Assembly: GCA_037444485.1 (NCBI GenBank)
Contig: JBBIMI010000017.1
Coordinates: 1-17,592, forward strand
DNA: 17,592 nt
Direction: 5' to 3'
Origin: Candidatus Micrarchaeota archaeon
GTDB lineage: Archaea > Micrarchaeota > Micrarchaeia > Norongarragalinales > Norongarragalinaceae
Shown: positions 15,001-17,592 of the stretch, piece by piece
How the letters are laid out: each line of letters starts with the position of its first letter
Position numbering within the stretch: the stretch's first letter is position 1
Position numbers: made by a program

Positions 15001-17592
15001 TACGCCGCGTTCGCCGCAATCGCGCTTGCAGTGTATTGGCTCCGCGTTTAATCGCTGATCGCTTAATCAGCGTTTCAGCGTTTATTCAAGTCCTTAACCG
15101 CTTCGCCAGCCGGCTTGTGGTTTACGAACACGCCAGCGCCAAGCTCGATTCCACCCCACACGTTCAACAAACGCGGATACACTTCAACGTGGAAATGGAA
15201 ATTCCGCACGCTGCGCGGCGCGCTGTGAAAAACGACTGTGTAATCAGGCGAAGCGCGCGCAACGCGCTTCGTCACTTCCCGCAGCAAACGCATGAACGCG
15301 AGCGCCTCGCTCCCCGAAAAATCGAGGATGCTGCGCGCATGCCGCTCGGGCGCAATCCAACACTCGAGAGGAAAACGCGCGAACGACGGCGTAAACGCAG
15401 CGAAACCCTTCTCGCGCGCGAAAACGTGCGCGCGTTCCTTCACGAGAATAGAGTGCAACGCGCTCTCGCCGCTTGCCTTGAAGCCGCGCGCGAAAGCTTC
15501 AACCTCTGACGCTATGAACTCGGGAACAAAATCTAGTCCAATGATTTGCGCGTGTTCGTGTGAAACACTCGCTCCGCTCGCGGCGCCGTGGTTGCGAAAC
15601 AAAAACACGCTTTCGCTGGCTTGCTGCAATTCACGGTAACGGTTTCTGTAAGCTTCGAAAACGAATGCGAGTTGTTCGTCACTAAAATTCTGGAATAACT
15701 CGTCATGGTCGAGTGTTTCAACTATTACCTCGTGGTTTTGTGTGATAGGAAAAGCGTTTTTGAAGCAACGCACGCGCCAATTTTCTTTCGATGGGAGCGC
15801 GAACGTCGTTGGAGGAGTGAGCTTCTCGCGGCCAGGACAAAAAAAGCATTCCCTCTTGTTTTTGACGAGCGGCCTCTTGCCCCTGCGTGCGAGCATAAAC
15901 GTCTTAAAGCCAGTCAAAGGATTGAAAGCCAGTTCACGCGAACCCATTAAAAAACACTCACCCGCACTCAATTAAAACACTTTCAATTTAAAACAAAATA
16001 AAACAATAAAAAAATTAAAAAAAAACAAATTAAAAAAAAACAAATTAAAACAACGAATTCATTAAAACGAAACTGCTTTAAGAACGTTTTTCCAAATACT
16101 TTACTGCGGTGGGCTGGTCGGGAGGCTAGAGGTCTCCTGTAACGCCAATCCTCTTTACGGCGGACAAAGGCTTTGGATAAAGCGCGCGAACGCTCGCGCG
16201 GCCTGACGCCGGCAGACGAAGCGTTGCCTCGCGTTATGCTTCGAGTGGCGAACCGAGCCAGGTCGGAAGAAGCAACTCTAAACCATTCAAAGCATGCTCG
16301 CGAGATACAATGCGGATGCTTGGCTTCAGACAACCCGCGGCGCGAACACGCTTGAACCAAAGCACGCTCACCGCACTCGCTAAAAAAAATTCCAGAAAAC
16401 AATGCCATCCTGCTTTTCAGGTTGCAGGTTTGCATACCGCGAGGCTTACACGATTCAAACTGTCGTTGAGTGTTACAGAATGGCTTCACTAAACGCGGGG
16501 CCAGAGTATTACGCGGCCGAAGGCCGTTACCGAGAAGCGAAAACCATTGAAGACAAGCTTGCAGCGCTTGAAGAAATGCTGCGCTACTGTCCAAAACATA
16601 AAGCCGCTCACTCCATCCTCATGGAAATCAAGAACAAAATCGCGCGCTTGAAGAAAGAACAACAACTCGAAGCCCGCAAGGCAGCGCAACGCAAGGCAGG
16701 CGGGCCGCGCGAGTTCGTAAAACGCGCTGGTGCAGCTCAAGTCGTGTTACTAGGATTCGCGAATTCAGGCAAGAGTTTTCTCTTAAACGCGCTTAGTGAC
16801 GGACGCGCGCGAGCGGCTTCAACTGAAAAGCCTTTCGAAACAATTGAAGTCACTCCTGGAATGATGGAGTTCGAGAAAATCCAGATTCAAATCCTCGACA
16901 CGCCGAGCGCAACTAACCAAAACCGCGCGCGGTTATTCGCGCTCGCCCGCAACGCCGACTTGACGCTTATTCTAATCGACCCCGCGCAAGACGAGAACCC
17001 CCAAAAATTTTTTTTTGACGCAGCGCCGGGAAGAAAAATATTCTTGAAACGCGGGGAAACGCTGAACGTTGACGCGTTAAAGAAAAAAATTTTTGACGAA
17101 CTCGGCGTGATACGCATTTTCACTAAAAACCCGCGCGGAGAAACTGATTATGAGCGTCCCATCGCCCTCGCGCGCGGGCGGAACACGGTTGCAGACGCTG
17201 CTCGCGAGATTCACAAGCAACTAGCTGAAGGCTTGAAGTATGCGCGCGTGTGGGGTTCAACGAAATTTCCGGGCCAGCAGGTCAGCGGCGATTACGAACT
17301 GCGGGACGGCGACGTCGTCGAACTCCACTTGAAATAAAAGCTTACAACAACAAAAGCTTACAACAACAAAAATACGAGGCGCAGAACCACAACACTACGA
17401 GGCACAGTATTACAAGAACTAGCGTGACGGACTAGCGTGACTGCTTGCGGGGCGTTTAAAGGCTTACGAGCGCTTAAAGCGAGAGTTTTAAAAACTAGTT
17501 TTTCGTAACGAGTTTAAGCAAAACGAACCAGTTTTCCAGTTTTTTTACTAGATTTAACTAGATTTGCGCGAAAAAAAGGTTTCGCGTGAAAG

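Follow-up and report, generated by a model that had tools for sequence, protein, structure and literature searches.

The signal recognition particle (SRP) of this archaeon is most likely a two-part ribonucleoprotein, in which SRP54 is joined by an RNA that retains its Alu domain and has no helix 6, and in which SRP19 has no place. The earlier note on this DNA had proposed such a particle, and it stands as the best reading now that helix 6 is missing, SRP19 is undetectable, and SRP54 and an Alu-domain RNA are what remains. The absence of helix 6 and the absence of SRP19 form a joint trait in our samples of three DPANN phyla, namely Micrarchaeota and the phyla of a Woesearchaeota MAG and an Aenigmatarchaeota MAG (Iainarchaeota, Nanohaloarchaeota, Altiarchaeota, Undinarchaeota and Huberarchaeota lie outside the sample). 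Since the same layout and the same missing protein recur in all three, the trait is one of superphylum scale and not, as the note had claimed, special to Micrarchaeota.

An archaeal SRP RNA gene that lacks helix 6

The window, a stretch of 17,592 nucleotides, carries an SRP RNA gene (Table 1); no other SRP RNA match was obtained in the genome, a 58-contig draft of 95% completeness. In cmscan, the RNA aligns with the archaeal model (Archaea_SRP, RF01857) over positions 1-317 of 317 at 91.9 bits and E = 5.7e-21, which identifies it as a real SRP RNA, takes in helix 1, Alu helices 2-4 and the UGUNR motif, and falls below the gathering threshold of 96.5 bits. The large bacterial model (Bacteria_large_SRP, RF01854) also matches, from 16109 to 16367 and end to end over its positions 1-256, at 69.4 bits and thus above its own gathering threshold of 60. 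The archaeal model, however, scores 22.5 bits higher, and the host, with archaeal TFB and S8e, is not a bacterium. Both the bacterial label and the end-to-end archaeal alignment with one clean 40-position gap had been reported before, and both were reproduced.

The gap falls exactly between the helix-5 5′ strand (...AUGCUUCG, ending at 16243) and the first bases of helix 8 (AGUGGC..., starting at 16244), where 40 model positions stand against 0 bases. In canonical RNAs aligned to the same model (a Bathyarchaeum MAG RNA of 313 nt and a Thalassarchaeum MAG RNA of 308 nt), these 40 positions lie between the same two elements and consist of 18 opening pair positions, a 4-nt loop (consensus GgAG) and 18 closing pair positions. 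Because the canonical alignments show that hairpin there, the skipped positions correspond to helix 6 (18 bp with a GNAR loop), in agreement with the earlier assignment. The window RNA therefore has no hairpin with a GNAR tetraloop at this point, and helix 5 runs unbranched into helix 8, which has the symmetric loop for SRP54 binding and a GNRA-type tetraloop. Expression of the gene, the ends of the RNA and its protein binding are predicted from sequence.

Table 1. Elements of the SRP RNA gene in the window
Feature	Coordinates	Strand	Basis
SRP (7S) RNA gene, 267 nt, archaeal type without helix 6	16107..16373	+	Archaea_SRP, 91.9 bits
Possible archaeal TATA box of the SRP RNA gene, TTTAAGAA	16077..16084	+	Predicted from sequence; 23-30 nt upstream of the first base of the RNA
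Alu (small) domain, 5′ part: helix 1 5′ strand and helices 2-4	16107..16170	+	Model positions 1-64, high posterior probability
UGUAAC motif in the Alu domain	16137-16143	+	Read from the aligned sequence
Helix 5, 5′ strand, ending ...AUGCUUCG	16171..16243	+	cmscan alignment; distal pairs covary in 64 relatives
Junction, expected branch point of helix 6	16243..16244	+	40 model positions against 0 bases
Helix 8, predicted SRP54 binding site	16244..16288	+	cmscan alignment; pairs covary
Helix 8 symmetric loop, CAGG / AGCA	16259-16262 / 16271-16274	+	Sequence and alignment
Helix 8 tip, 2-bp apical stem UC/GA with GGAA tetraloop	16265-16268 (tetraloop)	+	Sequence and alignment
Helix 5 3′ strand and helix 1 3′ strand	16289..16373	+	cmscan alignment; covariation

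SRP RNAs of Micrarchaeota and of other phyla

The RNAs of relatives, whose inspection the earlier note had left outstanding, have the same layout: in all 87 Micrarchaeota SRP RNAs fetched, helix 8 lies too near the 5′ end to leave room for a helix 6. Of the 85 RNAs measured, 82 have CAGG at 146-159 nt from the 5′ end; the three outliers (163, 168 and 200 nt) have additional hairpins, placed either in the Alu domain or in proximal helix 5, and two further RNAs were judged by eye. When 64 of the 87 RNAs were aligned, the S domain proved to be a single unbranched hairpin in which helix 5 continues into helix 8, the step from the last helix-5 pair to the first helix-8 pair taking one alignment column, and compensatory changes were seen in 29 of its 30 pairs. 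The 2-bp apical stem of helix 8 is common to 86 of the 87 relatives, and insertions within helix 8 also occur among relatives. An extra hairpin 3′ of helix 8, with GC-GNRA-GC as its minimal form, is present in 22/87 RNAs; the window RNA itself has none. The Archaea_SRP gathering threshold is passed in only 20 of 101 Micrarchaeota genomes, and under strict filters SRP RNA went unmatched in 13 of the 101, among them the sole genome of the same family.

Among genomes compared at a requested completeness of at least 80%, full-length SRP RNA matches measure 263-278 nt in 91 of 94 cases in the phylum of the Woesearchaeota MAG and 266-289 nt in 50 of 60 in that of the Aenigmatarchaeota MAG. In alignments from these two phyla, the helix-6 stretch again sets 40 model positions against 0-2 bases, and the highest score of an RNA without helix 6 against the archaeal model is 172 bits. 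The full-length matches of a non-DPANN phylum are longer, with 54 of 55 measuring 295-356 nt. Four partial matches were also seen in that phylum, probably from permuted, circularised SRP RNAs of the Thermoproteus type. One short RNA of a non-DPANN genome (267 nt), considered as a counter-example, has kept helix 6 and lost Alu helices instead. Long DPANN RNAs (306-358 nt), considered as possible keepers of helix 6, have their insertions elsewhere, except for L356, an Aenigmatarchaeota RNA (genome G243) with two short hairpins at the helix-6 position; SRP19 was not found in that genome. Three Aenigmatarchaeota RNAs carry 3′ hairpins similar to those located 3′ of helix 8 in Micrarchaeota.

Searches for SRP19, and the locus where it would lie

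In the window's genome, PF01922 gave no match at E≤10, tblastn reached E 0.16 at best, and a custom SRP19 HMM run with --max over 15,117 six-frame segments reached only 0.14. Over its cut-off, PF01922 was found in 0/101 Micrarchaeota genomes, extending an earlier count of 0/31, and likewise in 0/101 genomes from the phylum of the Woesearchaeota MAG and 0/61 from that of the Aenigmatarchaeota MAG. A homologue search with the Bathyarchaeum SRP19 returned close relatives only, and a custom profile, A1, was made from genome loci. A1 gave only four matches in Micrarchaeota (E 0.026-0.2) and none better than E 0.067 in 101 other DPANN genomes. The PF01922 search covered 263 genomes of the three phyla, and the A1 search covered 202 of these and five more.

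The controls behaved differently. PF01922 was detected in 59/61 and 56/61 genomes of two non-DPANN phyla (115/122 together), and A1 detected SRP19 in 59/61 genomes of a third, independent phylum that had not been used in building it, so that the two profiles recover SRP19 in 92-97% of the genomes of three control phyla. PF01922 does miss Sulfolobus acidocaldarius, as had been noticed before, and some real SRP19s therefore escape this search. None of the weak matches proved to be SRP19. The tblastn candidate at C1:1197-1262 lies within a 241-aa ORF; the best weak Micrarchaeota match of PF01922 (G020) is a PadR protein and that of A1 (G092) a HAD protein; a match in G222 (E 0.02) runs off-frame across two real genes; and the others fall in 285-811-aa frames or in frames with stops (the family scan was run on G020 and G092 only).

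Gene order gives a second view of the missing protein. rpS8e adjoins SRP19 in 55 of 62 control loci, and the order in Thermoproteota is S8e-SRP19-TFB. In the window's genome, S8e is followed by a Gar1-like ORF and then TFB. This 77-aa ORF in the syntenic slot matches the SRP19 profile with 0.04% probability, of its four homologues one carries the name Gar1 in its source, and its AlphaFold model (pLDDT 38.5) is of too low confidence for use. The custom HMM found no SRP19 relic in the 280-nt spacer after S8e. In the Woesearchaeota MAG, TFB directly follows S8e after a gap of 88 nt.

The remaining protein components are in place, as previously stated: SRP54 is encoded on C1 as a 438-aa ORF with N, G and M domains (M domain PF02978, 93 bits) and FtsY, the second SRP GTPase, on C3 (226 bits). 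The nearest named relatives of SRP54 come from Ca. Norongarragalinales and Ca. Micrarchaeota, at 74-79% identity, and the host is therefore a member of Micrarchaeota.

A predicted two-part particle and its known counterparts

A covarying RNA architecture, genes for SRP54 and FtsY, and SRP19 searches that found nothing together point to a two-part particle. In such a particle, SRP54 would bind the conserved CAGG/AGCA loops of helix 8 directly and unaided, helix 8 would not be pre-organised by any SRP19/helix-6 clamp, the Alu domain would reach the factor site of the ribosome, and FtsY would receive the SRP54-RNA complex. We infer unaided binding by analogy, because passages of a 2010 review report that archaeal SRP RNA binds SRP54 without SRP19, and that in Haloferax volcanii deletion of SRP19 leaves translocation and membrane insertion unaffected (Yurist et al., 2007, as described in PMC2905702). 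The deletion strain shows that an archaeal SRP can work without SRP19, as the particle predicted here would. There, however, helix 6 is kept and the deletion was made in the laboratory, whereas here both parts are naturally absent across whole phyla.

Compared with the canonical archaeal SRP of RNA, SRP19 and SRP54 (Methanocaldococcus jannaschii, Sulfolobus solfataricus, Pyrococcus furiosus), the particle is alike in helix 1, Alu helices 2-4 with UGUAAC, helix 5, helix 8 with its CAGG/AGCA loops and GGAA tetraloop, and archaeal SRP54 and FtsY. It differs in having neither helix 6 nor SRP19, in an RNA score below gathering, and in a helix-8 apical stem of 2 bp where the consensus has 3. According to the same passages of the review, SRP19 had been found in every archaeal subgroup, and the protein and helix 6 occur together (PMC2905702). 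Thermoproteus offers another natural departure from the standard layout of the archaeal SRP RNA gene, since its SRP RNA is permuted and circularised; there, unlike in the window's genome, helix 6 and SRP19 are kept, and SRP54 binding needs SRP19, as described in part of PMC4731332.

In topology, the window RNA resembles the large bacterial SRP RNA of the Bacillus subtilis type (RF01854), with an Alu domain, an unbranched helix 5 leading into helix 8, and no helix 6. It passes the threshold of that model, which none of four archaeal control genomes matches; it nevertheless scores higher on the archaeal model and belongs to an archaeal host with archaeal SRP54, TFB and S8e. In the Bacillus particle, the protein HBsu sits on the Alu domain.

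Alternative explanations and the history of the trait

A technical origin, by which a misassembly removed helix 6 or SRP19 lies in the unassembled 5%, could be imagined for a 58-contig draft. It is effectively refuted, because the layout and the absence replicate across assemblies: 87 Micrarchaeota assemblies, independent of one another, and the other two phyla show the RNA in the same form, and SRP19 is missing in 263/263 DPANN genomes and present in 115/122 controls. It also seems improbable that a cryptic partner, either a strongly diverged SRP19 or some small RNA-binding protein of other descent, assists through helix 8 alone or through lineage-specific hairpins. The Sulfolobus miss, the many small family-less ORFs of these genomes, and the 3′ hairpins of 22/87 Micrarchaeota and three Aenigmatarchaeota RNAs, which might bind something, all leave some room for such a protein. 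However, two profiles that succeed so consistently in controls find nothing in the DPANN genomes searched, the helix-6 tetraloop, the primary docking site of SRP19, is gone, the window RNA is without the extra hairpin, and the slot ORF matches the SRP19 profile with very low probability and has a homologue named Gar1.

The question of how the two-part particle arose is more evenly balanced. We lean towards loss of SRP19 and helix 6 during genome reduction. The less favoured but live alternative is that the particle works alike and DPANN never had either part, the module having arisen once on the stem of the other archaea, from which it passed to eukaryotes, while DPANN keep an older, bacterial-like layout. 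This alternative has in its favour the absence of both parts in bacteria, as given in passages of PMC2905702. It also fits their absence from all three sampled phyla, the lack of a relic in the spacer after S8e, and the S8e-TFB neighbourhood of the Woesearchaeota MAG, whose short gap suits insertion as well as deletion. Should the root of the Archaea separate DPANN from the others, as one published but disputed placement has it, one gain would also be more parsimonious than a gain and a loss. On the other side, DPANN genomes are strongly reduced and lack other universal markers beside PF01922 (PMC8421398, PMC10134863), which makes loss cheap. Both the monophyly of DPANN and their basal position are contested, and outside helix 6 the RNA is of archaeal type, as the high scores on the archaeal model indicate. 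The sample comprises three DPANN phyla. The earlier note's talk of a convergence on the Bacillus-type particle and of an endpoint of SRP19 dispensability presupposes loss and is not supported as it stands, primitive absence being a live alternative.

Prior record and implications

Part of the observation is already on record. PF01922 is listed as a missing CheckM marker in 152 Woesearchaeota genomes (PMC8421398, Methods) and in Parvarchaeales and Jingweiarchaeales (PMC10134863), so the novelty claimed for the trait needs qualifying; neither paper mentions SRP19 biology or the RNA. No link between missing PF01922 and SRP RNA was found in the literature covered, which took in these two papers without their supplements, and SRP is unmentioned in PMC3491384.

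Every DPANN sample analysed, comprising 263 genomes searched for the protein and ~240 RNAs, lacks both parts, and the controls have both. This is a clean case of co-variation between an RNA element and its protein partner, and it confirms in nature and on a large scale that an archaeal SRP can do without SRP19. There are practical consequences as well: Rfam thresholds under-call the helix-6-less RNAs or label them bacterial, and PF01922 depresses completeness estimates of DPANN genomes. As a minimal archaeal SRP, the particle also lends itself to structural studies and reconstitution. Furthermore, the pair forms a two-state character whose polarity bears on the position of DPANN in the archaeal tree. 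More speculatively, the SRP19/helix-6 module may be an invention that followed the DPANN split, DPANN preserving the ancestral layout of Alu domain, helix 5 and helix 8. If so, the pair would be a discrete, rare genomic change in support of a root between DPANN and the rest, and would date the origin of a component inherited by eukaryotes.

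A helix-6-less SRP RNA

Re-running cmscan with the archaeal SRP RNA model (RF01857, Archaea_SRP) placed positions 1-317 of 317 on the RNA gene at 16107-16373 (91.9 bits, E 5.7e-21), slightly below the family gathering score of 96.5. Between AUGCUUCG (ending at 16243) and AGUGGC (starting at 16244), 40 model positions face 0 bases, in agreement with the numbers of the earlier note. Two canonical RNAs aligned to the same model, one of 313 nt from a Bathyarchaeum MAG and one of 308 nt from a Thalassarchaeum MAG, fill these 40 positions with a hairpin of 18 bp, capped by a loop of 4 nt (consensus GgAG). 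Because this hairpin stands between the 5' strand of helix 5 and helix 8, the missing element is helix 6, as had been proposed from the order of the consensus elements. The RNA lacks the docking hairpin, with its Alu domain and SRP54-binding site retained. The bacterial large-SRP match reported before was reproduced as well, end to end and at 69.4 bits over a threshold of 60; the same model matches in none of four archaeal control genomes. This is the single SRP RNA locus of the genome (961,727 bp, 58 contigs, 95% complete), whose assignment to Micrarchaeota is borne out by named relatives of its SRP54. The gene is flanked by an N-glycosylation cluster on one side and a GTPase gene on the other.

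Features of the SRP RNA and of the two loci discussed in the text (C6, a contig of the same genome; other coordinates, window)
Feature	Position	Strand	Basis or remark
Helix-1 closing stem	within 16107-16373	+	cmscan alignment
Alu helices 2-4, UGUAAC	16137-16143 (UGUAAC)	+	cmscan alignment
Long helix 5	within 16107-16373	+	cmscan alignment
Helix 8 SRP54-binding loops	16259-16262 (CAGG), 16271-16274 (AGCA)	+	cmscan alignment
Helix 8 GGAA tetraloop	16265-16268	+	cmscan alignment
STT3/AglB oligosaccharyltransferase (974 aa), GT4 glycosyltransferase, HIT/GalT-like protein	11107-15971	-	N-glycosylation cluster
DRG-like GTPase with TGS domain	16402-17337		downstream of SRP RNA
S8e	C6:30766-31161	-	own genome; neighbourhood C6:29102-31161 (L369)

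The same layout throughout Micrarchaeota

RF01857 matches were found in 88 of 101 Micrarchaeota genomes, all at least 90% complete. One of the 88 is an unpublished genome (G028), and we compared the 87 other RNAs. CAGG lies 146-159 nt from the 5' end in 82 of the 85 RNAs measured, against 196 nt in the Bathyarchaeum RNA; two more, L033 and L064, were assessed by eye. The three outliers (163, 168 and 200 nt) bear additional hairpins, located in the Alu domain or in the proximal part of helix 5, away from the junction. For the S domain we aligned 64 of the 87 RNAs, leaving out L033 and 22 with an additional hairpin 3' of helix 8. RNAalifold folds these 64 into one unbranched irregular hairpin, with two-sided changes that preserve pairing in 29 of 30 pairs and 1 alignment column between the last helix-5 pair and the first helix-8 pair. 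The Micrarchaeota S domain therefore leaves helix 6 no space, and the relatives' RNAs, which the earlier note had not inspected, show the helix-6-less layout of the RNA in the window. Under strict filters, 13 of the 101 genomes gave no SRP RNA match, including G055, the sole other genome of the window's family among those searched. The gathering score is reached in only 20 of the 101, which means that standard annotation will overlook or mislabel the majority of Micrarchaeota SRP RNAs.

The apical stem of helix 8 (CAGG-NN-GGAA-NN-AGCA; 16263-16270 in the window) has 2 bp in 86 of the 87 RNAs, the lone 3-bp tip being that of L068, from the order of the window's genome. The Rfam consensus has a 3-bp tip, as does the majority of the RNAs from the two further DPANN phyla that we sampled. 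The 2-bp tip may be connected with the loss of the tetraloop clamp between helix 6 and helix 8.

Several RNAs carry additional elements. A 15-35-nt hairpin between the 3' strands of helix 8 and helix 5, the mirror position of helix 6, occurs in 22 of the 87 Micrarchaeota RNAs (L024, L045, L053, L057, L060, L065, L069-L072, L074-L081 and L083-L086), in its shortest forms as GC-GNRA-GC (GCAA, GAGA, GAAA), and at the same place in three Aenigmatarchaeota RNAs (L355, L360, L362). Intron-like insertions lie within helix 8 of nine SRP RNA genes (L033, L249-L251, L353, L354, L357, L359, L358): about 43 nt in the GGAA tetraloop of L033, 33-41 nt in the tetraloops of four Aenigmatarchaeota RNAs, and about 40-50 nt or 81 nt in the 5' strand at UCA|GG. 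The helix-8 consensus motif is regained once the insertions are taken out. Extra Alu-domain hairpins of about 17 nt occur in one Micrarchaeota genus (L066, L073, L087), with proximal helix 5 of L087 also enlarged by about 36 nt, and Alu-domain insertions of 45 and 108 nt in Aenigmatarchaeota (L360, L361).

Searches for SRP19

In the window's own genome, a six-frame search with the Pfam SRP19 family (PF01922) gave no match at E<=10, and tblastn with two control-genome SRP19 proteins gave at best E 0.16, within a 241-aa ORF. An HMM trained on 62 SRP19s and applied with --max to 15,117 stop-to-stop segments reached at best E 0.14 over 28 residues. Across Micrarchaeota, PF01922 is over the cut-off in 0 of 101 genomes (four at E 0.06-0.35), and A1, our profile of 58 SRP19 sequences, gave only four matches (E 0.026-0.2). 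The best weak PF01922 match (G020) is a PadR protein and the best weak A1 match (G092) a HAD protein; the remaining weak matches are situated in long or stop-containing frames.

The earlier note had cautioned that a model missing the Sulfolobus control could overlook a diverged SRP19. The PF01922 search does miss Sulfolobus, and we therefore gauged sensitivity directly in control phyla, with a completeness of at least 80% requested. In the phylum of the Bathyarchaeum MAG, 59 of 61 genomes have a PF01922 match over the cut-off; in that of the Thalassarchaeum MAG, 56 of 61 do. Run on the phylum of a Natrialbaceae MAG, which contributed no sequences to A1, this profile recovers SRP19 in 59 of 61 genomes (58 at E<=8.3e-22).

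Other DPANN phyla

A sequence-pattern scan led us to further archaea. PF01922 found no SRP19 in an Aenigmatarchaeota, a Woesearchaeota and a Pacearchaeota MAG, whose SRP RNAs (274, 271 and 260 nt, respectively) place 1-2 bases against the 40 model positions. In the phylum of the Woesearchaeota MAG, PF01922 is found in 0 of 101 genomes and A1 in 0 of 101 at better than E 0.067; SRP RNA is present in 95 of 101, with 91 of 94 full-length matches at 263-278 nt. The three long RNAs (309-320 nt) have an insertion in the helix-8 5' strand, without which the consensus returns. In the phylum of the Aenigmatarchaeota MAG, PF01922 is found in 0 of 61 genomes and SRP RNA in 60 of 61, 50 of these at 266-289 nt. 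In nine of the ten long RNAs there are insertions, placed in the tetraloop or 5' strand of helix 8, on its 3' side, or within the Alu domain. The tenth (L356, genome G243) is the only one with hairpins at the helix-6 position, two short ones with loops CGAAA and CAAG, which could be relics or a novel element; neither PF01922 nor A1 found SRP19 in this genome. CAGG lies 145-157 nt from the 5' end in 34 of the 39 RNAs that we measured in the Woesearchaeota MAG's phylum, and 150-168 nt from it in 30 of 35 for the Aenigmatarchaeota MAG's phylum.

In a non-DPANN control phylum, the full-length matches measure 295-356 nt in 54 of 55 cases. The single short RNA (L375, genome G268) is 267 nt long yet keeps helix 6, having lost Alu helices 3 and 4, and its genome encodes SRP19; RNA length alone is thus an unsafe proxy for helix-6 loss. 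SRP19 and helix 6 are jointly present or jointly absent in every sample examined, and the trait reaches beyond Micrarchaeota, the phylum to which the earlier note had tied it.

Particle, precedent and origin

SRP54 (438 aa, M domain 93 bits) is encoded on contig C1 and FtsY, the second SRP GTPase, on C3. The SRP54 M domain would bind helix 8 without a helper and the remaining targeting cycle would be standard, given the statements of a 2010 review: in its passages on SRP19, archaeal SRP RNA is able to bind SRP54 without SRP19, deletion of SRP19 in Haloferax volcanii leaves translocation unaffected, and SRP19 'may be defunct' in archaea (PMC2905702).

The same passages place SRP19 in all archaeal subgroups, coexisting with helix 6, and leave Nanoarchaeota unmentioned (PMC2905702). 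The CheckM marker PF01922 is on record as missing across 152 Woesearchaeota genomes (PMC8421398, Methods) and in Parvarchaeales and Jingweiarchaeales (PMC10134863); neither paper, in the parts consulted, takes up SRP19 or the RNA. The corresponding parts of a nanohaloarchaeal paper name FtsY, Ffh and SRP RNA and not SRP19 (PMC10266531), and those of the Mia14 paper mention just 'subunits and receptors' (PMC5498576). The novelty claimed before is thus reduced on the protein side; our search of main texts found no description of a natural archaeal lineage without SRP19, nor of an archaeal SRP RNA without helix 6. The double absence is real and robust, wider than first claimed, and partly anticipated.

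In 55 of 62 control loci rpS8e adjoins SRP19, mostly with SRP19 immediately downstream on the same strand, and TFB comes next in 19 of 62. In the window's genome, S8e is followed by a 280-nt spacer, a 77-aa ORF without a Pfam match, and TFB; in the Woesearchaeota MAG, TFB follows S8e after 88 nt. The 77-aa ORF fits the SRP19 profile at a probability of 0.04% and is Gar1-like; of its four homologues, one bears the name Gar1 in its source. The SRP19 slot next to S8e is vacant, which fits a deletion as well as a later insertion elsewhere. We regard loss of SRP19 and helix 6 through genome reduction as the probable origin, and their primitive absence as rather unlikely. Were the absence primitive, the SRP19/helix-6 pair would be a marker for the root of Archaea.
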